From the NCBI GenBank assembly GCA_016704525.1, contig JADIZX010000009.1, forward strand, positions 1-42,624: 42,624 nucleotides of DNA, written 5' to 3'. Under the pieces are notes generated by a model. That model saw nothing but the letters and a program-made list of their open reading frames with translations, did not search any database and was not told the origin of the DNA. The position numbers were made by a program, and so were the translations under genes. This stretch comes from Myxococcales bacterium. GTDB lineage: Bacteria > Myxococcota_A > Polyangia > Polyangiales > Polyangiaceae. Below, piece after piece: positions 1-17,624 of the stretch; position 1 is the stretch's first letter, and each line of letters opens with the position of its first letter.

Positions 1-330
1 GTGCTCCGCGGGTATCCGTCGGGCTTCCAGGTGGGGCAGCACTACACGCTCCTCAACACCGAGTACCGCTTCCCCATCTGGAACTTCGACCGCGGCTCCT
101 CCACGCTGCCGTTCTTCCTGAACCGCCTCACGGGCGCCGTGTTCTTCGACTACGGCGCGGCCTTCGACACCTTCGAGGACGCGAAATACAAGAGCGGCAC
201 AGGCGGCGAGCTCTGGCTCGACACGTTCCTCGGCTACGGGCTCCCGCTCACGTTCCGCCTCGGCTACGCGCGCGGCCTCGCGAGCGAGGGCACCGACAAG
301 GTGTACGTGGTCGGGGCGATTCCATACTAA
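1..330 (+). CDS. 3' fragment of an Omp85/BamA-family outer-membrane beta-barrel protein (gene begins before the window)
   Basis: The ORF is open from base 1. Its C-terminal motifs (RFPIWNFDRG, GAVFFDYGAAFD, alternating hydrophobic strands) are typical of the surface-antigen D15 barrel. Stop at 330. Confidence 0.5.
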   Translation: MLRGYPSGFQVGQHYTLLNTEYRFPIWNFDRGSSTLPFFLNRLTGAVFFDYGAAFDTFEDAKYKSGTGGELWLDTFLGYGLPLTFRLGYARGLASEGTDKVYVVGAIPY

Positions 331-405
331 CGACCTTGCAGAGCCATGGGGGTCCGGCCGCCGCAGAACTTGCCTTTTCGCGCGCGGCATAGAATGGGTA
401 GGGGC

Positions 406-954
406 ATGCGTCCTCTGGTCCTCGCGCTGCTCCTCTCGGCCTCGGCCGCCCCCGCGCTCACCCTCGGTGCGACCGGGTGTGCTGGGCAGTCACGCCCGGC
501 CCGCATGCGCGAGGCGGCCTCCGAGCTGAACCTGAACGCGCGCTTCGGCCGCATGGAAATGGCGAGCGAGCACGTGGCGCCCGAGGCACGCGAGGCGTTC
601 TTCAAGCGGCGCTCCGTGTGGGGCGGGCGCGTGCGCATCGTCGACTCCGAGCTCGTCGGCATCCGCTTCGAGAAGGACGACTCCGAGGCGCGGGCCACCG
701 TGGCGGTCGCGTGGCAGCCGGTCGACGACGGCGACCTGCGCACCACAACAGTCACCCAGACCTTCAAAGACAAGCGAAACGGCTGGCTCCTCGTGTCGGA
801 AGAGGTCGCGGGCGGCGACGTGGGCCTGTTCGGCGGGAAGGCGGCGGCGCCGAAGGACGTCCCCAAGAGCGCGCCCCGCAAGAACCAGTTCGACACGATC
901 CGCCTCGGTCAGGGCGAGCCCACGAAGCCCTCGGGCGACGACTCGGCGCCCTGA
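406..954 (+). CDS. hypothetical lipoprotein
   Basis: ATG at 406 is preceded by a G-rich SD (gggtagggg). The signal peptide MRPLVLALLLSASAAPALTLGATGC has a lipobox Cys. No recognisable catalytic motif. High GC3 in frame. Confidence 0.55.
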   Translation: MRPLVLALLLSASAAPALTLGATGCAGQSRPARMREAASELNLNARFGRMEMASEHVAPEAREAFFKRRSVWGGRVRIVDSELVGIRFEKDDSEARATVAVAWQPVDDGDLRTTTVTQTFKDKRNGWLLVSEEVAGGDVGLFGGKAAAPKDVPKSAPRKNQFDTIRLGQGEPTKPSGDDSAP

Positions 955-3150: not shown

Positions 3151-3345
3151 GGGGGCGCGTCGGCAGAGCCAGGGGTCGGCCGCGTCGCTCACGGGCGGGC
3201 CCTCACCCCTCGCGGGCCCTCACCCCTCGCGGGCCCTCACCCCTCGCGGGCCCTCACCCCTCGCGGGCCCTCACCCCTCGCGAAACGGCACGAGCCCCAC
3301 GCGCCCCTCTCCCACGAGGGGAGAGACGCGTCCGCGACCGCGATC
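3150..3345. repeat. partial copies of the MITE-like element family, joined by five tandem 18-bp repeats (gggccctcacccctcgcg, 3199-3289)
   Basis: A right end (agtcggccgcg.cgctcacgggcgg) is joined to five reiterations of the terminal-repeat motif. This is followed by a left end and the first hairpin (cccctctcccacgaggggagag). The same motifs occur at 9215-9395 and 11455-12425. Confidence 0.7.
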
Positions 3346-4149: not shown

Positions 4150-4514
4150 CTACTGAAGTACCACCTGTCCACCCCAATCTCCCGTTCCGCCCGACGACAC
4201 GCTCAGGCTAATGTCGAAGGCTCCGGCGTCGAAGGACTTGCTCTCATAGGTGCCGGCTCCAATCAGATACGAGCCGACCGGCAGCTTCGTGAGCGTCGCA
4301 GTCGGCACGGTAGCTGTCCCATCGGCGAAGTCGTACTCGCACGAGAGCACATGCACGGGGTATCCTCCCGTCTTCCAAAGCGTGAAGCCGATCTTGCCGA
4401 CCTCCCCGGATCCTCCGCTCCACGAAAGGACGATATCCTGATTGCGGGGGAGGCGTTGACCGCTCACGAGGACCGGCCCGGTGACCGTAAAACTCTTGGG
4501 TGTTCGGAGGGTCT

Positions 4515-4540
<26 letters not shown>
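4150..4540 (-). CDS. C-terminal domain (about 130 aa) of a protein whose upstream part is replaced by the G/C-only tract
   Basis: Well-behaved coding sequence (FTVTGPVLVSG...GSYLIGAGTYESKSFDAGAFDISLSVSSGGTGDWGGQVVLQ, beta-rich) ends at a stop at 4150. Upstream of about 4540 the frame continues into sequence that codes only Gly/Pro/Ala/Arg. The true N-terminus is unknown. Confidence 0.35.
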
Positions 4541-5849
<1,309 letters not shown>

Positions 5850-5854
<5 letters not shown>

Positions 5855-7376
5855 TCTCGGCGGCGCGGAGGCGGGCGAGCATGACCGCGGCGGGCTCGTC
5901 GGTGGGGTCCTGGGGGACGAGCTCGCCGCGGAAGGCCTTGGCGAGGAGGGGAGCCCTTCGAGGCTCCGGCGAGGGCCTCGTAGAGTTCGGCGCTCGTCAA
6001 CTCCTGTACCGGGATTGCCGCGAGGGCACGCCGCCTCAGTCGGTCGCGGAGGACGGTCTGTTCACCGGCCGGCGTGAGCGGCATGGGGAAGCGCCCGCAT
6101 GGCTCCGATGTTGACATGTGGTGCTGCGGACAACCACACTTGAGCATCTAGGAACCGCCGCGCTCGCCCATGCGATGCCCTAGTTGAACGCCATCACATG
6201 CGGATCGACGAACGACACGACCTGGTGGGCGACGCGCAAGGATCGCGCGCAGATAACGGGGGGGGGGCCGGGGGGGGGGGGGCGGTCGGCTAACGATCGG
6301 GGATGGCACATGCCGTGCCGAGGCGCTCGCCTCCGCGAACGACGAGATGTCCCGGGGGCCAGGCGGACTTCGCCAATTCCGCATGGACGTCGGGCGGATG
6401 CAGCGAAGCCCAGAAGGACTCGTAGCGATTCGCCCGGACGGTTCTGGACCGAAGAACGGGAACGCCCTCCGCCACGTAGCCGGGCTCCATCGGGCAGACG
6501 TGCCCGACAGTGATGTCCGGTGAGCGAAGGTCCTCAGCCGATGCCCAACACCACCCCTCCGGCAACTCCGGCAACCCCGTCGCATCGACCGGCTCGGGCT
6601 CCTTGTACTTCCCCTTCCACGCGTCATCCCGCGGGGCCTTCCCCTTGGCGGTCATCTTGGCGAGCTCGGCCTCTTCCCACTTCTTCCGGCGCTCCACGCG
6701 GATGCGCTTCAAGAGCTCGCTCGCGGGCTCCACGTCTCTGTTCTTCGCGCGCCAGTCCTTCGTGAGGTCCCCGCGAAAGGCCGCCGCGAGGATCGACTGG
6801 CGGAGCTTCTCGAGCAGCGGCGGCACGGCGTCGAGCGCCGCGCGGGCGCGACGGGAGCGGGCTTGGAGGGATTCGAGCTTGGCGACGATGCGGCGTTGTT
6901 CGTTGAGGGGGGGACCGGCAAGTCCATTTCCGCAAAGCGCCCGCCCCGAGGTGGCGCGATGTTCGTCGTAATCTGCGCCAACGGAACGAACGCGCCGCTC
7001 TTCAACCAGTTTCGGAATACGCCGAGCGCAAAGGTGGGCTCGACCATCGGGGAGGCCTGAAAGCGGACCAGCGAATTGCTGAAGCAGGCCCCTGGCAGCT
7101 CACCGCGAGACATCGCCGGGCGACCCACCTCTTCGCGTCTGTCCCTCGTTCAGAAGGATGTCCCCCGGGCTGCGCAAGTAGCGCCCACTCCACGCGGCTC
7201 GAAGTGCATCTGCATGACGTCGCTGATGCCGATGCGATCGTTACGTTCGCGACTCGCAGGTACGGGAGCATATTCGGCCCCCGGTGCACGTCGGGAGAGC
7301 GCTGGCGGCCAAGCTGGACCTTGCCCGCCTCGCGAACTTTGACTTGGCACCATCCGCTCGGAAGCTCCTTCGTCAC
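5850..7376 (-). pseudogene. hsdS: Type I restriction-modification specificity subunit HsdS, disrupted by at least 3-4 frameshifts
   Basis: The start overlaps the hsdM stop (ATGA at 7373-7376). TRD1 begins MTKELPSGWCQVKVREAGKVQ. The central conserved repeat (LNEQRRIVAKLESL...PPLLEKLRQSILAAAFRGDL...EPASELLKRIRVER) lies in another frame. TRD2 begins LPELPEGWCWASAEDL. The C-terminal conserved repeat (LLAKAFRGELVPQDPTDEPAAVMLARLRAAE, 5870-5960) is in a third frame. The frame breaks coincide with G7 (6907-6913) and G10CCG14 (6263-6290) tracts. Confidence 0.75.
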
Positions 7377-8809
7377 GCCCCCAGCTCCTCTTGAAGCGCC
7401 GCCATCTCCTCCAGCGCCACCTGCAGCTGCGCAACAATCTCCGCGGCGATCTCCTCCGGCTCCGGGAGATCCGCGTGGTCGGTCACGCTCTCATCCCGCA
7501 GCCACGAGATATCCAGGTTCTCCCCCCGCTTCGCGATCTCCTCCCGCGTGAACTTCCGGAACCGCCCCGTCTCGCCCTGATCCTTCCGCTTGCTCTTCCC
7601 CAGCGGATCCGCCCCGTAGGCCTTCTCGAACTCCGCGAAGTGCGCGCGCGTGAACGGCGTGCGCTTGCCGAACGAGGGCATGTTGGTGCGCAGGTCGTAG
7701 AACCACACGGCCTTGGTGTTGCCCTTGTCCTGCTTCTTCTCCCCCCGCGTGAAGAAGAGCACGTTGGTCTTCACGCCCTGCGCGTAGAAGATGCCCGTGG
7801 GCAGTCGCAGGATGGTGTGCAAGTCGCACTTGTCCATCAGGTCAGCGCGCACCTGCTTGCCCACGCCCTCCTCGAAGAGCACGTTGTCCGGGAGCACCAC
7901 CGCCGCGCGCCCGCCGGGCACGAGGCCTCGGTAGATGTGCTGGAGGAACACGAGTTGCTTGTTGCTCGTGGGGTACGTGAGGTCGTCGCGCGTGGGGGCG
8001 CCGCCGCCCTTCTTGGTGCCGAAGGGGGGATTCGTGAGGATCACGTTCGCCTTCGGCAGGTTGGCGCCCGAGGGGCCGAGCGTGTCGCCGAGCACGAGGT
8101 CGCCCTCGATGTCGTGGAGCATGGCGTTCATGAGCGCCAGGCGCTGCACGTCGGCCACGAGCTCCATCCCCTGGAAGGCCTCGCGTCGCTGGAAGTTCTG
8201 CTTGGCCACGGGCAAGTCGTGGAGATCGTCGGTGTTCGCCTTCACGTACCTGTCGGCGTTGATGAGGAATCCCCCGGTGCCGATCGCGGGATCTTGGATG
8301 ATTTCGCCCGGCTGGGGCTTCACGAGGGCGACCATGCTCTCGATGAGCGCGCGCGGCGTGAAGTATTGCCCCGCGCCGCTCTTGGTCTCCTCCGCGTTCT
8401 TCTCGAGCAGGCCCTCGTAGAGGTCCCCGAGCCCCTCGGACTTGGCGCTGTACCAGTCGAGCGCGTCGATCGCCTCGACCACCGTGCGCAGGTTCCGCGG
8501 CTGCCGGAACGAGGTGCCCGCGTTGGCGAAGATCGCCTGCACGCGCCCCGAGCCTTTGCCGCCGAGATCGATGAGGAGCTTCTTGTAGAAGTCGAGCAGC
8601 TCCACGCCCTCTTTGTTGACGAGATCGCCCCAGCGATAGCCCTTGGGGAGCTGGTCCTCGGTGCCTGTCTCCTTGGTCATCTTGAGGAAGAGGAGATAGG
8701 TGAGCTCGGTCACGTACTGGAGATACGTGATGCCGTCGTCACGGAGGACGTGGCAGAGGTTCCAGAGCTTCTGGACGATGTCGTTCGTGGTCGGCGCGGC
8801 GGGTGGCAT
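7373..8809 (-). CDS. hsdM: Type I restriction-modification DNA methyltransferase subunit HsdM (N6-adenine)
   Basis: HsdM N-terminal domain (NDIVQKLWNLCHVLRDDGITYLQYVTELTYLLFLK). SAM-binding motif (DPAIGTGGFL). Catalytic NPPF (VILTNPPFG). Internal ATG at 8809 chosen; the 5' extension of the ORF looks Arg-rich and non-coding. Confidence 0.9.
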   Translation of the reverse strand: MPPAAPTTNDIVQKLWNLCHVLRDDGITYLQYVTELTYLLFLKMTKETGTEDQLPKGYRWGDLVNKEGVELLDFYKKLLIDLGGKGSGRVQAIFANAGTSFRQPRNLRTVVEAIDALDWYSAKSEGLGDLYEGLLEKNAEETKSGAGQYFTPRALIESMVALVKPQPGEIIQDPAIGTGGFLINADRYVKANTDDLHDLPVAKQNFQRREAFQGMELVADVQRLALMNAMLHDIEGDLVLGDTLGPSGANLPKANVILTNPPFGTKKGGGAPTRDDLTYPTSNKQLVFLQHIYRGLVPGGRAAVVLPDNVLFEEGVGKQVRADLMDKCDLHTILRLPTGIFYAQGVKTNVLFFTRGEKKQDKGNTKAVWFYDLRTNMPSFGKRTPFTRAHFAEFEKAYGADPLGKSKRKDQGETGRFRKFTREEIAKRGENLDISWLRDESVTDHADLPEPEEIAAEIVAQLQVALEEMAALQEELGA

Positions 8810-8933: not shown

Positions 8934-9176
8934 TCAGCGCTCGCGAGCGCGATGCACGTCCTCGGGGGCGATCCCGAGGTCACGACCGGACAGGATGTCC
9001 TCGATCCTCCGATCGACCTCAGGCGGCACCGTCTCACCCGAGGTGTCCTCCGGCGCGCGCACCATCACCAGGACGGCGGGGTGGCTGCGCATGTCCTCGG
9101 GCCACTGCTCGAGCGCCACGCGCTCCGCCTCGGTGGTCTCGGCGGTGTCGAGCTTGCGCGCGGTGTTCGGCGACAT
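8934..9176 (-). CDS. small acidic hypothetical protein (80 aa) immediately upstream of hsdM
   Basis: Strong GC3 bias in frame. 18 Asp/Glu versus 11 Arg/Lys. No motif I recognise. Same strand as hsdM with a 125-bp gap. Confidence 0.4.
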   Translation of the reverse strand: MSPNTARKLDTAETTEAERVALEQWPEDMRSHPAVLVMVRAPEDTSGETVPPEVDRRIEDILSGRDLGIAPEDVHRARER

Positions 9177-9214
9177 GGTCGAGGTCTAGCACGCGTCGGC
9201 GAGGGCGCGCGCGG

Positions 9215-9395
9215 TGAGCGCCCGCGACGCTCGCGGCCCTCACCCCCTCGCGCAGCGGCACGAGACCCACGTGCCCCTCTCCCACAAGGGGAGAGGGGCC
9301 CTTTCCGGAGCAGCTCGTGTGGCCCCTCTCCCCTGGTGGGAGAGGGGCACAAGTCGCCCGCGCCGCTCACGGGCGGGGTGAGGGCTCGCGGGCGT
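9215..9395. repeat. single copy of the MITE-like palindromic element: terminal inverted repeats gggccctcaccccctcgcg / cgcgggcggggtgagggc with two internal hairpins
   Basis: cccctctcccacaaggggagagggg and cccctctcccctggtgggagagggg are perfect hairpins. The flanking ends are inverted complements of each other. Homologous to the units at 11455-12425. Confidence 0.75.
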
Positions 9396-9531
9396 GGTGG
9401 GTGGGTCGCCCTTGTCTTCCGGGCTCGACGCTGAGCTGACGGCCCTTGGCGGCGGCGAACACCGGGCGCCCCGCGCGCCCAGATCGCTCGAGCGCACGGC
9501 AGGTCGGAGCAGGACGTGCTATTTTTCGAGA

Positions 9532-9777
9532 ATGGACAACGGGCCCGAGGCCCGCGCCGCGCGGCGCCGGGCGACCTGGAACTGGGAATGCCGAGTCGCG
9601 AAGACCTTCGCGGAGCACGAGCAGGACGGCCTCGATTTTTGGGCGGATGCGCCAAGCTCGGCGAAGCTCGACGCCATGTGGGACCTCATCGTCGAGGCTT
9701 GGTTGCTCGGAGGAAAGCGTGGACCTGCACCCCGATTTCAGGGATCTGTTGTCGCAATTCGCCGCTTCGAGCGTTGA
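9532..9777 (+). CDS. small hypothetical protein (82 aa), 5' partner of the nucleotidyltransferase gene
   Basis: ATG at 9532 follows an unusually AT-rich stretch (ctatttttcgagaATG). MDNGPEARAARRRATWNWECRVAKTFAEHEQDGLDFWADAPSSAKLDAMWDLIVEAWLLGG... It overlaps the next gene's start by 59 nt. The start is uncertain, since the ORF is open from 9394. Confidence 0.35.
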   Translation: MDNGPEARAARRRATWNWECRVAKTFAEHEQDGLDFWADAPSSAKLDAMWDLIVEAWLLGGKRGPAPRFQGSVVAIRRFER

Positions 9778-10141
9778 CTACTTGATGATCGGTGGCTGGG
9801 CGGTGAGCTTCCACAGCGAGCCGCGCTATACTAAAGATCTCGATCTGCTCTTGGTCGGGAGTGACGACAATCTCGCGAGAGCGGCGGAGGCCCTCGGCGC
9901 CTTCGGGGCGCCACGTTCGGTCATCGACCTGCTGCTCGCGCTCGGGCCGGAGGAGTTCAGCTCACTCGTCGCCGTCGCAGGCCAGACGCTCGAACGCGTC
10001 CCCGCGGCTCACGCGAGTCCATCGAGGATCCCTCGCGACCTCCGCAAGCGCCGCGCGGTCCTCGTCGCCAAGCGCGGGCCCCTCCTCCGCGGACGCGAAC
10101 GCGAGGGAGACGGCCTTCTTTGCGGTGGGAGCCATGACTGA
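9719..10141 (+). CDS. minimal nucleotidyltransferase-fold (MNT/AbiEii-like) protein
   Basis: GTG at 9719 with SD ggagga 4-5 nt upstream. The motif YLMIGGWAVSFHSEPRYTKDLDLLLVG matches the GG-x(9-13)-D-h-D-h signature of Pol-beta-superfamily minimal NTases. Preceded by FRDLLSQFAASSVDY. 140 aa. Confidence 0.55.
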   Translation: MDLHPDFRDLLSQFAASSVDYLMIGGWAVSFHSEPRYTKDLDLLLVGSDDNLARAAEALGAFGAPRSVIDLLLALGPEEFSSLVAVAGQTLERVPAAHASPSRIPRDLRKRRAVLVAKRGPLLRGREREGDGLLCGGSHD

Positions 10142-10294
10142 GGAGTAGCGCGTCAGGGCGCGCCCGTCACCCACGCCCCGCGACACGTCCGAGAGGCAGC
10201 TCTGACGCCGTCGGTGAGCTGCGTGCCGCGGAGGCGCGCCCGTCACGGACCGCTCGGGTTGCTCGGTCACGGCGCCGGAGGTATCGTGCTCCGC

Positions 10295-11398
10295 ATGAGC
10301 GCGGGGTCTCCGTTGGGGTGTGCGCTACGCGAGCAGCGTGACGCCCTCGGCTGTTCAGCCGAGCGACTCGCCGCGCTCTCCGAGCTGCCCGTCGACAGAG
10401 TGCTCGCCCTCGAGCAAGGCGCGCAGGCGACGACCCGTGAAATCGCGAAGCTGGCGTCAGCCCTCGCCGTGGATCCCGCCGCGCTGTGGCGAGGCGAGGT
10501 CAGCCTGCCTCGAACGACCGCGCGATTCCGTGCGCCGAGCGGCGTCGCGTCCCTCGCGGAGGGCGACGCGCGGCTGCTCGCGCGGGCCGCAGAGGCGGGG
10601 CGCGTCCTCGCGCATCTGCGCTCGCTGCGCGGCGAGGAGGCGGCGTCCGTCGTGGCCCGGAGGAGGGTGTCCGGCGTCGCCGGGTGGCCCGAGCCCTGGG
10701 ACCAGGGCTACCGGCTTGGCGCGAGGCTGCGAGCCGACCTCGGGCCCGGCAAGGCGCCAATTCCTTCGGTGCAGCGCCTTCTCGAGGAGCACGGCGTGCA
10801 CGTCGCCTGGAGCGCGTTCGAGAGCGGCGACGTGATCGCGGCCAGTCTCTACGAGCCCGGCGCGGCGCCCGTCATCCTGCTCAATACGAGGTCGCCGAGG
10901 GCGAGGGCGAGGCTCTCACGCCGAGCTGTCCTGGCTCATGAGCTCTGCCATCTCGTGGTCGACGGCGGCGAGACGGACCTGCTCACGCTCGTCTCCCGCG
11001 GCGTCGACGCGACCGAGGTCGAGCAACGGGCGAACGGCTTTGCCCCTAGCTTCATCGTGCCCGGAGGGTGGATATCGCCCCACACCACCGACGTCCGACA
11101 GCTCGCTCTCGACGTCGCCACGGAGTGGGGGCTGAGCTTCGAGGGCGCTCTCTGGCACTTGAAGAATGCGCAGCACATCGGGGCGAGGGATGTCGAAGAG
11201 GAGCTGCGGCGGGAGGCCGTCGTCATTCCAGAGGGTGCGTTCGAGGGCGACATCGAGCGCCGAGAGCCGGCGCATCTCCGTCTGGACGTGACGATCGGTC
11301 CCCTCGCATACGGGGCGCTCTCCGACGTGACACTCGGCGCCTTCGAGGCCGACATGATCTCCCGAGGTCGCGCCGTCGAGATCCTCGCGCTCGCATGA
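10295..11398 (+). CDS. XRE-family HTH fused to an ImmA/IrrE-family zinc metallopeptidase (COG2856/DUF955-type)
   Basis: N-terminal HTH (LREQRDALGCSAERLAALSELPVDRVLALEQG). HEXXH zinc motif (VLAHELCHLVVDG). Internal ATG at 10295 chosen; the ORF is open from 10214. Confidence 0.7.
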   Translation: MSAGSPLGCALREQRDALGCSAERLAALSELPVDRVLALEQGAQATTREIAKLASALAVDPAALWRGEVSLPRTTARFRAPSGVASLAEGDARLLARAAEAGRVLAHLRSLRGEEAASVVARRRVSGVAGWPEPWDQGYRLGARLRADLGPGKAPIPSVQRLLEEHGVHVAWSAFESGDVIAASLYEPGAAPVILLNTRSPRARARLSRRAVLAHELCHLVVDGGETDLLTLVSRGVDATEVEQRANGFAPSFIVPGGWISPHTTDVRQLALDVATEWGLSFEGALWHLKNAQHIGARDVEEELRREAVVIPEGAFEGDIERREPAHLRLDVTIGPLAYGALSDVTLGAFEADMISRGRAVEILALA

Positions 11399-11454: not shown

Positions 11455-12425
11455 CACGCGGGCCCTCACCCCCTCGCGAATCGGCACGAGCCCCACGTGC
11501 CCCTCTCCCACAAGGGGAGAGGGGCCCCTTTCCCGAGCAACTCGTGTGGCCCCTCTCCCCTGGTGGGAGAGGGGCACGAGTCGGCCGCGACGCTCGCGGG
11601 CGGGGTGAGGGCTCACGGGCGGGGTGAGGGCTCACGGGCGGGCAGAGGGCTCGCGCGCGGGCAGAGGGCTCGCGGGGCGGCTCACGTCGGGCGCGACTCT
11701 CGCGGGCCCTCACCCCCTCGCGAATCGGCACGAGCCCCACGTGCCCCTCTCCCACAAGGGGAGAGGGGCCCCTTTCCCGAGCAACTCGTGTGGCCCCTCT
11801 CCCCTGGTGGGAGAGGGGCACGAGTCGGCCGCGACGCTCGCGGGCGGGGTGAGGGCTCGCGGGCGGGGGTGAGGGCTCGCGGGCGGGCAGAAGGCTCGCG
11901 GGCGGGCAGAGGGCTCGCGGGGCGGCTCACGTCGGGCGCGACTCTCGCGGGCCCTCACCCCCCCTCGCGAATCGGCACGAGCCCCGTGCCCCTCTCCCAC
12001 AAGGGGAGGGGCCCCTTTCCCGAGCAACTCGTGTGGCCCCTCTCCCCTGGTGGGAGAGGGGCACGAGTCGGCCGCGACGCTCGCGGGCGGGGTGAGGGCT
12101 CGCGGGCGGGGTGAGGGCTCGCGGGCGGGCAGAAGGCTCGCGCGCGGGCAGAGGGCTCGCGGGGCGGCTCACGTCGGGCGCGACTCTCGCGGGCCCTCAC
12201 CCCCTCGCGAATCGGCACGAGCCCCACGTGCCCCTCTCCCACAAGGGGAGAGGGCCCCTTTCCCGAGCAACTCGCGTGGCCCCTCTCCCCTGGTGGGAGA
12301 GGGGCACGAGTCGGCCGCGACGCTCGCGGGCGGGGTGAGGGCTCGCGGCCGGGGTGAGGGCTCGCGGCCGGCTTGAGGGCTCACGGGCGGCGTGAAGGCT
12401 CACGGGCGGGGTGAGGGCTCACGGC
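11455..12425. repeat. array of four tandem units (period about 243 bp) of the MITE-like palindromic element
   Basis: Units begin at about 11461, 11704, 11950 and 12190. Each has the left TIR, hairpin 1 (cccctctcccacaaggggagagggg), hairpin 2 (cccctctcccctggtgggagagggg), the right TIR, and variable gggcgggcagagggctcgcg sub-repeats. Units are contiguous with no unique spacers. Confidence 0.85.
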
Positions 12426-12786: not shown

Positions 12787-15700
12787 CTATCCCACGTCCC
12801 TCCACACCTCTTCCGCCAGCTCACCCAGCAACATCTCGAGCTTCCCGTCGAACACCTTGTTCAGCCGCGCGAAGCCGCCGTCGGTCTTGAACTGTCCCGC
12901 ATCCAGCGAGGCCTTGTCCACCACGGTCTCGAGCTTCACCTGCTTGGCGATGCGGTCGAGCCACTTGGCCTGGGGCTCGGTGAGCTTGTGGGCCTTCCGG
13001 AGCCGCGCCACCGCGCGATCCACGCGCTCGCCGTAGGGCACGAGCGGTGAGCCGAGCGCGGCCTGGCGGATGTAGCCGACGATGGTCGCGGCGACGTCCT
13101 CGTTCTTCTGCTCTTTCCATGCGGTCTGCACCGACTTTTCGCCGTAGCCCTCCTCGTCGAGCGCGAGCTTGAGCGCCTTCAGGTCCGCGCGCGTGAGATC
13201 GCGCGGGCGCTGGACCACGACCAGCAGCGCGGGGAGCTTGTTCATGTGGCGCGTCACGAAGTCGCGGAACGACTCGAGGTAGTCGGCGGGCGGGCGGCTC
13301 CCGTGCTTGCCATAGCCGCGCGTCACCTCGCGGAGGCCGTCGGCGTGCTCGGACACGAGCACCTTGTACTCGCCGCCGCCCACGGTGCGGTCGAGGAACG
13401 GCGCGAGCGAGGGGTGGGCCCGCAGGTAGGCGGCCGCGTCGAGCACCGTGCCGTGCTTGAGGAGCTGCGTGAGCTCGCGGAGGTCCATGCCCGCCGCGCC
13501 CTGGAAGGGCTCCTGCGCGTCTCCCTGGAGCGCCCGCTTCTTGCGCTGGAGCTTGGCGAGGAGCTCCTCGAGCGACAGGCGCCGGTGCTCGTCGTTCGTG
13601 CCCTCGAGGATCTCCTTCGTGAGCTGCTCAAAGGTCACCTTCGGGTTGACCACGACCGGCTTCATGTCGGTCACGCTCTCGAGCGCGGCGTAGAGATCCA
13701 CGGCGTCGAAGACGCGAAAGCGCTCCTTGCCTATCTCGGGGCACAGGCGCGTCGCGCGGCCCATCATCTGCTCGTAGAGGATGCGGCTCCGCACGCGGCG
13801 CAGAAAGACCAGGTTGGCGATCTTCGGCACGTCGATGCCCGTCGTGAGGAGATCGACCGTGACGGCGATGTTCGGGTGGCGCTCGTTCCGGTAGCGCCGA
13901 ATGGCCTCGAGCGGCCGGTCGGTGGTCCCCGTGATCTTGAGCACCGCGTCGTCGTCGACCTCGCCGAACTTCTTCGTGAGCTCCTCCTTCAGCAGCGTGA
14001 CGACCATGTCGGCGTGCTCGTCGGTGGCGCAGAAGATGAGGGTCTTCTCGTCCTCGCTCGGATCGATGTGGTTCTGGACGAGCTCGGCGAGCACGACGCG
14101 GTTCCAGCCCTCGGTGATGACGCGGCGGTTGAAGGCGTCGATCTCGAAGTCGACGTTCTCGGCGAGCTTCTCCTTCTGGAGCGTCTGCGCCTTGCGATCG
14201 AGGACGAGCACCTCCTCGTGGGCCTCGTAGTGAATGCCGTCGTGCGCCTGGTGCGTGACGATGCGAATGGGCGGCTCGTGGTCCACCAGGAAGCCGTCCA
14301 CGACGGCCTCGCGGTAGCCGTAGGAGTACACCGGGGCGCCGAAAATTTCGCTCGTGTGGAGCGCGGGCGTGGCGGTGAGGCCGATCTTGGTGGCGTCGAA
14401 GTGGTCGAGCACGCGCCGGTACTTCGAGATGTAGTCGTCCTCGTCGCGAAACTCGAGATCACGCTCGGAGAGCTCGCGGTCGAGCAAATACCCTCGATGG
14501 CACTCGTCCACCACGACGCAGTCGTACTGGTCGACGGGCGGGATGTTGGCCTCGCTCGCGTCGTCGTGAGGGCCGAGCACGCGCTTCACCATGGCCTGGA
14601 TCGTGGCCAGCTGGAGCTTGGTCTCGCGGTCCGGCTTGAGATCGCCGAGCTCCTTCACGTCGAAGATGTCGGTGAAGGTCTGCAGGTTCTCGAGGCGGAG
14701 ATCCTTGAGCGCGTCCCCGGTCTGGCGGCCGAGCGCGCTCCGGTCGACGAGGAAGAGCACGCGCCGGAAGCGCTTCGTCTTGAGGAGGCGGTACACGAGG
14801 CCGATGCACGTGCGCGTCTTGCCGGTGCCGGTCGCCATGGCGAGCAAGAGCTCGCGCTGCCCCTTCTCGAGGCCCGCCTCGACCGCGAGGATGGCCTTCC
14901 GCTGGTACTCGCGGTCGATGTACGGCATCGGCTCGACCTGGAGCTTCGCGTGCGCTTCGTCCACGTCCTGGCGCAGGAGGTCGACGAGCCCGTCGGGCGT
15001 GTACCAGCCCTCGAGGGCGGTCGGATGGTTCTGGGGCCGGCGCGCGTCGAGAAACCAGATGCCGCTCTTCGCGTGGAACTGCCGGAGGTACGCGCGGCCG
15101 TTCGTGGCGAAGAGGAACGGCACTTTGTGCGCTCCCCACGGGCTCCCCTCGGGGAGAGACTCGCCGCCCTTCACGAGGTATCCCGCGGAGTACCGCTTGG
15201 CCTGGGGAATGACCCCCGACACGTCCTTGTGCTTGCGCTTCGCCTCCACCACGCCGACCACCTGGAGGCCGGCGAAGAGCACGTAGTCGGCCCAGCCTTC
15301 CCGGCCGTCCACGCGCGTGGGCCACTCGGCGATCGCGAGGTTCTTGCCCTTCGTGGGGCGCGCCCCTCGCTCGAACGTGAGCCCTTGGGAGTCGGCCTCC
15401 CAGCCCGCCGCGCGGAGCTGATGGTCAATCAGCCGCCGCGTGGCGGCTTCGTCAAGGTGGATGTCCTCGCTCGCCTTGTGGGCGACGCCGATGCTCTGCG
15501 CGAGCGCGGCCGGAGGCATCGCGACCGCGGCGGCCTGGAGGGCCGCGAGCTCCTCCGCGAGCTTCTTGTTCTGGGCGAGGAGCGCGGCGCTCTTCTTCGC
15601 CTCGGCCTCGAGCTGCTCCTTCGCGAGCTCCTCCCAGATCGCCGCGTCGTCACGCGCCTTCTGCGCGCGCTGCTCGGCAGTCGTGCGCCCCGCGAGCTCG

Positions 15701-16259
15701 GCCTCGGCGGCCTCGCGCGCCTCCTCGATCGCCCGCTGGGCGGCCTCGAGATCCTTCGTGCGCGCGCGGACGTCGTCGCGCAGGCGCTGGAGCTCGTCCT
15801 CGAGGGCGGCCTCGGGGCGCTGCGGGGGAGAGGGCGGCACGAACGGGCCCGGATCGAACTTGCGGTTGTTGCCGAAGCTCCGCTGAAACCAGACCCCCAG
15901 CTCGCGCGCCATGCGGAGCTGGTGGAGCGCCTCGCCGTGGTCTCCCCGGCCCTCGTGCACCGCGGCGTTGCCGACCCGCCGGAGATCGTGAAAGAGCGAG
16001 CGCTGCGTGGCGCCGATGACGTTCCGCTCCCAGAGCCGATCGATGAGCTGCTGCTGCCCGTCCTGAGGCCCCACGAAGAGCCCGACCTTGGCCGCCGCGC
16101 GCTGCGCGAGCTGCTCACCGAACGCGCGGAGCTTGAAGAGCGTGACCGAGGGATCCCCCGCGAAGTGCTCCTCGGCCTGCGTCGCGAGCGCCACGAGCCG
16201 CGCGTCGTGGTGCGCGAGATAGGCGAAGTTGGGTGACGGAGCGGGCGGCGCGGGAGGCA
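12787..16259 (-). CDS. hsdR: Type I restriction enzyme R subunit HsdR (1157 aa), with an N-terminal DUF4145-like domain and a long coiled-coil
   Basis: ATG at 16259 (MPPAPPAPSPNFAYLAHHDARLV...) chosen; the 1383-aa ORF upstream of it is Arg/Gly junk. Helicase motif I (LLAMATGTGKTRT), motif II (VVVDECHRG), motif III (GLTATP) and HsdR-type C-terminal region are present. Coiled-coil EDELQRLRDDVRARTKDLEAAQRAIEEAREAAE... Confidence 0.9.
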
Positions 16260-16553
16260 TGGGCGGAACGTGGAGGATACACGGATCGAGGGGTGGGTTC
16301 CCAGGGGATCGGGCCAGATCTCCGACTCCTTCCACGGAGCGAGCGTCATCGACGAGTCGACCGCGCCGATGCTTCGCGCGGCTCGAGGGACGCCGGCACG
16401 CGCGGGCGCGGATCGACGTGCGCACCGGCGTTGCCAAGCCAGCGCCAACCGGCGACGCTCGGCGTCGCGCTGCCCGACTGGGATCACCGCTACGAGGCGG
16501 CATCCGTTGAGCTCGTCGTCTCTGCGGACGCGAGGAACGTGACGCGGACATCT

Positions 16554-17624
16554 TCACCCCGACAGGACATCCTCCAGCGTCGCGGCGGTGAGCACCCGCT
16601 CCGCCCAGGTGTCGAGCGTGGCAGCGTCCGCGGCGTCGAGTCGCGCGTTCGCACCCTCGGGGAGCGCACCGAACCGGAGAGCGAGCTGCTTGCGCAACAT
16701 GACGCGTCGACCTTGGACCTCTCCGACGATGATTCCTCGTGCCTCTCCCTTTTGCATCAACTCTTCGCCTGCGGTCATGAGCGTCTCCTTCAAGCGTTCG
16801 TCCGGGAGCGCCCCACGAAGCTGTTCCAGTACGATCCGCGACTCCGCGGGGTGGACCATCATCACATAGCGCAGGACGGTGTCCAGCGCCGCCCTCCCGT
16901 GTGGCGCCATCATGATCTCGAGCGCCACGTCCGCCCACGCGCCCAGATGGCGCACGAGCTCCTCAGGGTCGCGCGCGCGGCGGAAGCAATAGAGCACCAG
17001 CCGGCCGAGCGCGGACATCGCGCGCGCGCGAAGCGCTTCGTCGGTCTCGGTGACGAGCTCGTCGAGCACGAAGCGATGGCGCAGCACGTGCGCGCCCGCG
17101 GCCCGGAGGGTCGCTTCGTCGAGATCGTACAGCTCCTCGAGCGAACGCGCGGCCGTCCAGCCAGCGTCGCCGTGGTGAAGGACGACAGGGACGAGCGCGG
17201 GGAGCACCGTCGCGCCGGGGTTCTCCTTCAGCCACGACTCCCAGATGCGAACGGCATAGACCACCAGCCGAAAGGGCATGAGCGGGTGCGGGGTGCTCTG
17301 ATGCTCGTAAAGGAGATAGAGACGGGCCTCGCGACCCGAGAGCGACACGCGGAACAGAAGATCGGTGTGGCGGCTCTTGAGCTCGGCGTCCACGAACGAG
17401 CCAGGGACGGCCTCGAGCGTGTCCCAGGAGAACCGCGCCGCGAGCCCCTTCGGGAGCGCCGTGCGGAGCGCTCCCTCGGCGTGCCGCGGGTCCGAGAACG
17501 TGGACTTGAAGAGGGCGTCGTGGGGGCTCGGGGGCACGTGCCCAAGATGGCAAAGTCGAGGCCAGCGCGAGCAGGCAGGAATCCTCGGGCGGCGTGGGGG
17601 CGCCGATTGTCCGGGACGGCTCAT
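16554..17624 (-). CDS. Rpn-family recombination-promoting nuclease / putative transposase (PD-(D/E)xK, YhgA-like)
   Basis: HDALFKSTFSDPRHAEGALRTALP...FVDAELKSRHTDLLFRVSLSGREARLYLLYEHQST...FRLVVYAVRIWESW is the hallmark N-terminal nuclease core of the Rpn/transposase_31 family, with a DUF4351-like C-terminus. The start is uncertain: ATG at 17624 leaves an atypical 34-aa leader, and a GTG near 17546 is possible. Confidence 0.7.
   Translation of the reverse strand: MSRPGQSAPPRRPRIPACSRWPRLCHLGHVPPSPHDALFKSTFSDPRHAEGALRTALPKGLAARFSWDTLEAVPGSFVDAELKSRHTDLLFRVSLSGREARLYLLYEHQSTPHPLMPFRLVVYAVRIWESWLKENPGATVLPALVPVVLHHGDAGWTAARSLEELYDLDEATLRAAGAHVLRHRFVLDELVTETDEALRARAMSALGRLVLYCFRRARDPEELVRHLGAWADVALEIMMAPHGRAALDTVLRYVMMVHPAESRIVLEQLRGALPDERLKETLMTAGEELMQKGEARGIIVGEVQGRRVMLRKQLALRFGALPEGANARLDAADAATLDTWAERVLTAATLEDVLSG

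Follow-up and report, generated by a model that had tools for sequence, protein, structure and literature searches.

Probable remains of two facing two-gene modules, one encoding a MenT1-like nucleotidyltransferase, in a myxococcal restriction-modification locus

The window, i.e. the whole stretch of DNA analysed here, comprises 42,624 nucleotides (nt) of contig JADIZX010000009.1 from a Myxococcales bacterium (GenBank assembly GCA_016704525.1). Between the hsdM and hsdR genes of its Type I restriction-modification (R-M) locus, and thus riding in a Type I island as an initial annotation had noted, lies a small module which that annotation described as an 82-amino-acid (aa) protein followed by an overlapping, complete 140-aa minimal nucleotidyltransferase (NTase). 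Herein we find at this place one intact open reading frame (ORF1), the N-terminal half of an NTase that is intact in relatives, and a conserved gene on the opposite strand, arranged as follows:

9532 to 9777, plus strand: ORF1, an intact small protein of 81 aa (ATG at 9532, stop at 9775-9777), candidate antitoxin, orphaned here.
9709 to 9714, plus strand: GGAGGA, a Shine-Dalgarno (SD)-like site inside ORF1 (in Gly-Gly codons), 4 nt before the GTG at 9719.
9719 to 9777, plus strand: dual-coding overlap, where the same 59 nt encode, in two frames, the ORF1 tail (GPAPRFQGSVVAIRRFER) and the NTase N-terminal helix (VDLHPDFRDLLSQFAASSVD).
9719 to 9959, plus strand: NTase remnant, the GTG and residues 1-80 of a MenT1-like (AbiEii/DUF6036) enzyme, delimited by alignment and matching positions 1-83 only of the family hidden Markov model (HMM).
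9958 to 9965, no strand: deletion junction, consisting of NTase codon 80 (TTC) plus A, with a 2-nt CA microhomology at 9958-9959.
9960 to 10141, plus strand: spurious 3' part of the 140-aa ORF (59-60 codons), antisense to the real minus-strand gene and without family homology.
9962 to 10135, minus strand: a 57-aa gene (MAPTAKK...DGDE) with homologues P0162-P0167.

The second ORF runs from the GTG at 9719 to 10141 and encodes 140 aa, and annotations of metagenome-assembled genomes (MAGs) call an identical protein (P0001). As a query it retrieved hundreds of ~152-aa proteins carrying PF19502 (DUF6036), PF08843 (AbiEii) or PF09970, most of which matched just the first 57–59% of its length. It fits the family through ...LALGPEEF (residue 80, nt 9959), and the conserved C-terminal half of the relatives (...VRVD.LR...DLIAAKRAAGRERDLRD) is not shared, which upholds the ORF but not the complete NTase that had been read from it. 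The assignment to the Pol-beta-type NTases of the AbiEii/MenT/DUF6036 group holds for the N-terminus, where the remnant retains G25, G26, T38, D40 and D42; the GG-x12-DLDL signature named initially is present, albeit with 13 residues between G25-G26 and D40-L-D42-L. Absent are the strands and helices of residues 81-150, including K130, R135, D138 and D141. In line with this, the window ORF scores 17.9 bits against PF08843 (gathering cut-off 22.5) and has no match to PF19502 (cut-off 23.6 bits), while intact relatives exceed both cut-offs (the 150-aa metagenomic protein P0003 with 27.9 bits for PF08843, and L008, L011 and P0003 with 32.1, 26.8 and 23.7 bits, respectively, for PF19502). The GC content at third codon positions favors the plus frame up to ~9990 and the minus frame from ~10050. 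Judged by these comparisons, the 140-aa ORF is a chimera, in which an NTase stub reads on into antisense DNA, and its annotation as one protein is an artefact. The stub should be inactive, because the Lys, the C-terminal Asp residues and half of the predicted fold are missing.

The break can be mapped by means of close relatives. P0003, encoded by the contigs L004 and L005, is the same as the window ORF up to PEEF and then continues into the canonical C-terminal half. The DNA of these two contigs is ~98% identical to the window over ~9497-9959 and from ~10229 on, and the intervening 269 nt of the window (9960-10228) have no DNA similarity to them. The segment 9958-10195 is 86% identical to a stretch 5' of hsdM in L007, a related MAG contig that also has an intact ORF1-NTase pair, and comparison with L007 identifies the far side of the junction as the initial 6-8 nt of an 84-aa gene (GTG AGC TG on the minus strand). 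The same junction is found in L106, a Myxococcales MAG (GCA_016720545.1) that is 97.3% identical to the window over 4.2 kb, as well as in P0002, on which grounds an assembly artefact was rejected as its cause. A relocation or inversion of the C-terminal half within the window was rejected too, since comparing the window with itself by blastn and tblastn turned up neither a copy of that half nor an inverted segment, and tblastn with the true C-terminal half as query had no match in the window. The simplest history would be a single deletion that removed the NTase from codon 81 on together with nearly all of the convergent 84-aa gene, and we infer that both modules had stood face to face here. 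Within this lineage the enzyme exists in three states: truncated (window and L106), frameshifted (L001-L003 and P0004) and intact (L004-L007). In L106 (3814-4060 of JADKKK010000003.1) ORF1 has in addition a premature stop at codon 68, and four amino-acid changes are clustered in the NTase N-terminus within the overlap, a single case that suggests relaxed constraint after the death of the enzyme.

The minus-strand ORF 9962-10270 had been set aside as spurious, a judgement that is contradicted by its core (9962-10135): homologues of the 57-aa gene are 61–62 aa long and 60–87% identical, with a ratio of nonsynonymous to synonymous polymorphism (pN/pS) of 0.14–0.29, so that the gene is real and under purifying selection. 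In L007 (1153-1592, minus strand) a 62-aa gene of this kind is followed, with an ATGA overlap, by the 84-aa ORF, and a pair of 61 and 84 aa with the same ATGA overlap recurs in the unrelated contigs L023-L025 (e.g., L023 2183-2619, plus strand); the window keeps just the first gene of this pair. Searches of the pair against Pfam, NCBIfam, PADLOC and PDB gave no match. A suspicion from sequence pattern that the 84-aa gene is of the RelE/ParE type found no support in Pfam, NCBIfam, PADLOC or a PDB sequence search. The architecture of the pair looks like that of toxin–antitoxin (TA) modules, and the 57-aa gene, on gene order alone, looks like an orphan antitoxin.

The upstream gene, ORF1, was correctly recognized as an ORF, with a length of 81 rather than 82 aa, and as a protein without a placeable motif, neither ORF1 nor divergent members of its family having a match in Pfam, NCBIfam or PADLOC. 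A word-indexed search recovered only two close relatives, and an exhaustive phmmer search a family of 39 representative clusters (~80–110 aa) that align end to end and share conserved Arg-rich segments. Outside the overlap, pN/pS of the ORF1 frame is 0.56 pooled and 0.23–0.47 in close pairs (other two frames 1.15–1.26). The AlphaFold2 (AF2) model, with a predicted local distance difference test (pLDDT) value of 80, has helices at residues 4-15, 26-39 and 42-59 and a disordered tail at 61-81; a winged helix is not predicted. The family profile retrieved nothing similar among PDB sequences (MenA1 included), and the predicted fold no similar solved structure in the PDB (MenA1 and AbiEi included). 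In the literature searched we found no description of the ORF1 partner family and no mention of DUF6036. The sequence evidence indicates a real gene in ORF1, belonging to a small-protein family without a model and encoding a conserved folded protein, not a leader peptide.

A further test of the pair is whether its two genes occur together elsewhere, and they do. Scanning with the ORF1 profile (one genome per species) gave 17 loci, all in Polyangiales, Myxococcales or Labilithrix MAGs, and in 17/17 of them the NTase starts inside the end of ORF1, with an overlap of exactly 59 nt everywhere except at the decayed locus L022. With the NTase profile, 80 metagenome loci were retrieved (GC 0.33–0.70); upstream of the NTase and across its start, a narrow ORF1 HMM matches in ~65 of the 80, and in 74 a -1-frame ORF with at least 47 upstream codons extends over the first codon of the NTase and stops exactly 59 nt beyond it in 54 loci and 53 nt beyond it in 20, the other alternative frame being short and irregular. 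Where the HMM does not match, the partners are visibly related (...YW...ERL.A.E..R..YG....RLQR...). Altogether, an overlap of 59 or 53 nt was seen in 82 of the 88 loci whose NTase is intact, over GC contents of 0.33–0.70, a recurrence beyond chance. The SD-like GGAGGA before GTG 9719 and the out-of-frame 59-nt overlap are as first reported, and relatives have purine-rich GGGA/GGAG 5-9 nt 5' of the NTase start; the label of a classic translationally coupled arrangement does not fit, as an overlap of 53–59 nt differs from classic stop/start coupling. NTase family members are also found on plasmids of Acidobacteriota, Bacteroidota and Cyanobacteria, and none in a phage collection. On the Acidisarcina polymorpha plasmid pACPOL3 (NZ_CP030844.1; L107, 1350-1947) the true start of the NTase falls within an ORF1 homologue (MDKTIRRYTSFDEMKADEYRYWQSRP...), the annotated NTase (WP_236657655.1) begins at an in-frame codon further upstream, and the small partner is unlisted (the PLSDB gene table is incomplete); annotation may thus have missed the ORF1 family there. 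By sequence, the module is a genuine, conserved, non-HEPN pair of a small protein and an NTase, and the window holds a dead remnant of it, so the "non-canonical small-protein/NTase pair" of the initial annotation exists, although not intact in the window.

Both frames of the overlap carry signs of selection. Each ORF1 codon there consists of base 3 of one NTase codon plus bases 1-2 of the next, and because of this phasing the synonymous choices of the NTase set the residues of ORF1. Codon usage of the NTase deviates from background accordingly at five points:

Pro5: CCC/CCA 44, CCG/CCT 4 (background 54% CCG/CCT; P = 3e-11), giving Arg in ORF1.
Phe7: TTC 55, TTT 2 (background 42% TTT; P = 3e-11), giving Gln in ORF1, not a stop.
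Arg8: AGR 21, CGN 2 (background 15% AGR; P = 9e-16), giving Gln-Arg/Gly in ORF1.
Lys8: AAA 27, AAG 6 (background 51% AAG; P = 1e-4), making the next ORF1 codon Arg (AGA), not Gly (GGA).
Asp9: GAT 38, GAC 11 (background 50% GAC; P = 7e-5), giving Ser in ORF1.

Clustering at 60% identity, which leaves 39 clusters, does not remove the biases (AGR:CGN 11:2, P = 6e-9; TTC:TTT 21:2; GAT:GAC 18:4). The stop of ORF1 requires a third-position T, which is used 20% of the time there, and still 82/88 loci stop at +59 or +53, as do 35 of the 39 clusters. Total divergence in the overlap is low, with pN/pS of 0.66 in the NTase frame and 1.06 in the ORF1 frame. These sequence patterns indicate that both frames are under selection, and from the codon biases it follows that the ORF1 tail, with its R-L/F-Q-R/G-S motif, is probably translated and of importance. 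A hairpin sequestering the SD site was considered as a reason for the fixed ORF1 stop; the minimum-free-energy structure of the window does pair GGAGG with the region before the stop, but with a z-score of +0.82, and the idea was dropped. In 16 relatives, no consensus RNA structure or covariation was detected.

The intact NTase is closest, in sequence and in fold, to the tRNA-modifying toxin MenT1 of Mycobacterium tuberculosis. A profile of 43 family members, in all of which the GG...DxD residues (G25, G26, D40, D42) are invariant, as the initial annotation would have them be, matches MenT1 (8an4_A) with E = 4e-10 over positions 13-149. The AF2 model of P0003 (pLDDT 93.4) finds MenT1 (8an5_B) as its best solved match (E = 8e-7, template modelling (TM) score 0.69). 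The family G25-G26...D40-L-D42 aligns to the MenT1 GG...T-R-D-V-D, and T39, D41, K137 and D152 of MenT1 align to the family-invariant T38, D40, K130 and D138/D141. MenT1 is no longer toxic when it carries D41A, K137A or D152A (PMC10435456). Of the motifs of the MenT/AbiEii (DUF1814) toxins, I/II (hG[GS]-x9-13-D-h-[DE]-h) are present in the window ORF, and III (Lys; K137 in MenT1) and IV (Asp; D152 in MenT1) are present in P0003 and missing from the window ORF. The HEPN/MNT domain models PF01909 and PF18765 match neither the window ORFs nor the intact relatives, and, as had been observed at the outset, no HEPN partner is evident, the neighbors being ORF1, the 57-aa gene and an RmrA-like gene. 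Two observations concern more distant enzymes. L016 has, ~1.5 kb 5' of a locus with a truncated ORF1-linked NTase, another and divergent paralogue of the NTase (158-448, minus strand; HMM positions 10-105). On the Fibrella plasmid CP155474.1 (L108, 1252-3399) a ~635-aa DUF6036-annotated protein stands behind a non-overlapping, different 75-aa acidic protein and adjoins an AbiEi/AbiEii pair; more distant NTase branches therefore use other partners.

To see how the pair decays, we counted intact and broken genes in 15 independent genome loci (L008-L022) found through ORF1. Of the 15 NTases, eight are intact, one is frameshifted, and six break off or give way to other sequence after residues 21-92. 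ORF1 is open in 13/15, and two of the truncations set in immediately behind the ORF1 stop; among the seven loci with a lost or broken NTase, ORF1 is open in five, as it is in the window. In loci picked through an intact NTase, the ORF1 frame is open in 73 of 75 evaluable cases. The NTase thus seems to depend on ORF1, while ORF1 often survives the loss of the NTase, and because the enzyme is often broken while ORF1 is intact, this asymmetry of sequence decay suggests the NTase as the toxin and ORF1 as the antitoxin. It conflicts with the role of an MNT antitoxin, which the initial annotation had offered as an alternative for the NTase.

The surroundings contain these further features:

7373 to 8809, minus strand: hsdM of the Type I R-M system (N6_Mtase, 8.5e-74, and HsdM_N).
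9520 to 9531, plus strand: AT-rich patch (tatttttcgaga) immediately 5' of the ORF1 ATG, with a local GC of 0.57 (window 0.715).
10295 to 11398, plus strand: RmrA-like gene, an XRE-type helix-turn-helix (HTH) plus Peptidase_M78 (ImmA/IrrE) by Pfam (PADLOC RmrA, 1.4e-20), outside the module.
12787 to 16938, minus strand: hsdR of the Type I R-M system (EcoEI_R_C, ResIII and HSDR_N), given by its outer ORF limits; the true start probably lies downstream of the outer limit.

The GC content of the module (0.55–0.63) is below that of its surroundings (71.5% for the whole window), which fits horizontal acquisition. The AT-rich patch, kept as TATCTTTCGAGA in L004 and L005, is present as initially annotated, but its proposed role as a promoter gained no support, a simple scan of 9150-10350 having revealed no sigma-70 consensus promoter; among its possible roles are initiation without an SD site and, through a -10-like TATTTT, production of a near-leaderless transcript. 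RmrA is the antitoxin of Rosmer (RmrT/RmrA) defence systems (PADLOC models), and no obvious RmrT toxin gene accompanies the RmrA-like gene at 10295-11398. The NTase was considered as its toxin partner and rejected, since their adjacency is lineage-specific: the gene stands beside the module in the window and L004-L006 only and is missing in L007 and all of the other ~95 loci. A 78-aa gene called downstream of it in L004 is in repeat DNA. In the window, a tandem repeat at 11457-12371 consists of 3.8 copies of a 243-nt unit, each with 19-nt sub-repeats (GCTCGCGGGCGGGCAGAGG) and palindromic CCCCTCTCCC...GGGAGAGGGG elements, and related copies flank the module at 9205-9400 and 3175-3325; the contigs of relatives end or vary in these repeats. 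Close to the Type I R-M genes, at 4150-6147 on the minus strand, an ORF of 665 aa has no Pfam match at E<=0.001.

We consider it probable, on all of this, that 9532-10135 holds the remains of two small two-gene modules facing each other, and that the ORF1-NTase module is, where intact, TA-like and of the MenAT/AbiE kind. The first module would comprise ORF1 (81 aa) and an NTase of ~150 aa that is MenT1-like and starts 59 nt inside ORF1; the second, on the opposite strand, a gene of 57–62 aa followed by the 84-aa gene. One deletion at the 2-nt microhomology would then have left the two intact first genes flanking an 80-residue NTase stub. By analogy with MenT1, the intact NTase would be a toxin that blocks growth, probably by adding nucleotides to tRNA 3' ends, and ORF1 a new type of small antitoxin whose helical core and disordered RLQR tail may bind and block the enzyme. 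The MenT1 gene is preceded by that of its antitoxin MenA1, a helical protein of 68 aa (PMC10435456) which also induces auto-phosphorylation of MenT1 on T39 (PMC11375011); ORF1 may similarly induce auto-phosphorylation of the NTase on the conserved Thr38. With the antitoxin tail and the toxin N-terminal helix on the same bases, the two genes would be physically tied, and ribosomes on ORF1 would cross the ribosome-binding site of the toxin, a translational tie that might, speculatively, set the antitoxin:toxin ratio. The window locus itself, where the presumed antitoxin alone survives, is probably inert or at most anti-addictive.

Several points weigh against this interpretation. The integrity counts come mostly from MAGs, in which some frameshifts may be assembly errors, and the two samples of loci were selected differently. 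The fold search also returned LnuA, TM1012 and ANT(2'')-Ia (E from 1e-4 to 1e-3), plus JHP933. The antitoxin role of ORF1 rests on synteny and the decay pattern, ORF1 being similar neither to MenA1 and AbiEi nor to solved structures, and toxicity, neutralisation and tRNA modification by the pair are proposed by analogy with MenAT1. A specific mechanism of coupling finds no support in conserved RNA structure. Finally, in L007 the second pair is located elsewhere, upstream of hsdM.

Among the other readings, the one that survives best goes further in the same direction and is held tentatively: ORF1 and the NTase may be a widespread, undescribed TA or defence family in which the ~55 nt of dual coding are a deliberate genetic and translational interlock. 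The 3' end of the antitoxin could then not be lost without destroying the start of the toxin, translation of ORF1 would gate initiation of the toxin, and the ORF1 tail with its RLQR motif would either occupy the active site of the NTase or set off its auto-phosphorylation. The range to be accounted for is Myxococcota, Acidobacteriota and Cyanobacteria plasmids, and metagenomes with GC contents of 0.33–0.70.

An explanation without a TA module appears unlikely. It would make the NTase an enzyme that modifies small molecules or antibiotics, or a housekeeping enzyme, with ORF1 as a translated upstream regulator or chaperone tuning its expression, and could draw on the fold matches to LnuA, ANT(2'')-Ia and TM1012, on a weak Aminoglyc_resit Pfam match of relatives, and on the start codon within an upstream ORF, which resembles expression-control layouts. 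MenT1 is nevertheless the best match by a clear margin, and this match takes in the DUF1814-specific C-terminal K...D..D region; decay of the enzyme is frequent and leaves ORF1, a conserved folded protein, in place; and the contexts are variable (plasmids, inside an R-M locus), as with mobile TA or defence modules. Reversed roles are improbable to a still higher degree. In HEPN/MNT systems the NTase is the antitoxin, MntA nucleotidylating HepT, and on this precedent the NTase here could be protective or regulatory, nucleotidylating ORF1 or another target, while the part of toxin or substrate would fall to ORF1, whose Arg-rich segments are conserved and which has no known fold. A toxin should not outlast its antitoxin, as ORF1 would have done in five of the seven loci where the NTase is lost or broken; the nearest relative of the enzyme, by sequence as well as by fold, is a toxin (MenT1) and not MntA; and neither a HEPN gene nor a PF01909 or PF18765 match accompanies the pair. 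Programmed +1 frameshifting is hardly credible as the purpose of the overlap. It would yield an ORF1-NTase fusion such as P0154 (85 aa), an ORF1 homologue that runs in frame into the NTase N-terminus (...GSAP|DFRDLLEEF...) with its join at the CCCC run of the overlap, where many members have CCC-CGA or CCC-AGA (Pro, rare Arg). P0154 is a single case at a contig end, however, and explicable by an indel in the C-run (taken by itself, the join might reflect an indel from sequencing or a fusion that occurs in nature, or might hint at frameshifting); many members have CTC-CGA or other codons without a slippery run, CCCC is not conserved, the NTase is equipped with a conserved start and an SD-like motif of its own, and the downstream residues and stop of ORF1 are under selection. 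Just as poor are the chances of an intact, functional window pair with a complete 140-aa NTase and a minus-strand ORF that is noise, since the ORFs, SD site, start codon, GG...DLDL motif and MAG annotations (P0001) on which it can call are outweighed by a stretch of residues 81-140 unrelated to the family, a Pfam score below cut-off, absent catalytic Lys and Asp positions, the 86% identity of that DNA to a segment lying elsewhere in L007 alongside an intact NTase, and the purifying selection on the conserved minus-strand gene.

In terms of annotation, the 140-aa "NTase" is to be corrected to a pseudogene stub and the discarded minus-strand ORF to a real gene, and the hsdM-hsdR region appears as a graveyard of two small modules with presumed antitoxins as the sole survivors. 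The analysis also exposes a small-protein family that is tied to MenT1-like NTases, is modelled by none of Pfam, NCBIfam and PADLOC, and was apparently skipped by at least one RefSeq annotation. If the pair is a TA module, ORF1 would be a third, unrelated type of antitoxin for MenT/AbiEii toxins, DUF6036-type enzymes would have a function, and the overlap would offer a clean natural case of two proteins evolving on the same nucleotides.

Known systems share parts of this picture. Rosmer (RmrT/RmrA) is set apart by its consistent pairing with an HTH plus ImmA-peptidase antitoxin, a pairing that the NTase does not have. With the DUF6036 (PF19502), DUF2204 (PF09970) and TM1012 NTases the module has in common that intact relatives score above the PF19502 cut-off and that TM1012 is among the fold matches, while these families are without an assigned function or partner and the window ORF has no DUF6036 match. 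HEPN/MNT (HepT/MntA, type VII TA) likewise combines a minimal Pol-beta NTase bearing GG...DxD with a second gene, but here a HEPN gene is absent, PF01909 and PF18765 do not match, the gene order is opposite, and decay points to the NTase as the putative toxic partner. AbiE (AbiEi/AbiEii, type IV TA/abortive infection) is similar in that intact relatives pass PF08843, the presumed antitoxin comes first, and the setting is one of defence loci and plasmids; it differs in its AbiEi partner (COG5340, winged helix plus C-terminal domain), which is lacking here, and in an NTase ~100 residues longer, as judged by the 238-position AbiEii model. From MenAT1 (Rv0078B/Rv0078A, Mycobacterium tuberculosis) the module is distinguished by an ORF1 unrelated to MenA1 in sequence and predicted fold, by an NTase of ~150 aa (196 in MenT1), by the conserved 53–59-nt dual-coding overlap, by being known from sequence alone and, in the window copy, by the missing C-terminal half. 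What it shares with MenAT1 is a compact DUF1814/AbiEii-type NTase behind a short helical protein without a DNA-binding domain, a similarity to MenT1 evident in both sequence (E = 4e-10) and predicted fold (TM 0.69), and the T, D, K and D positions of the active site, all of which are kept in the intact relatives.

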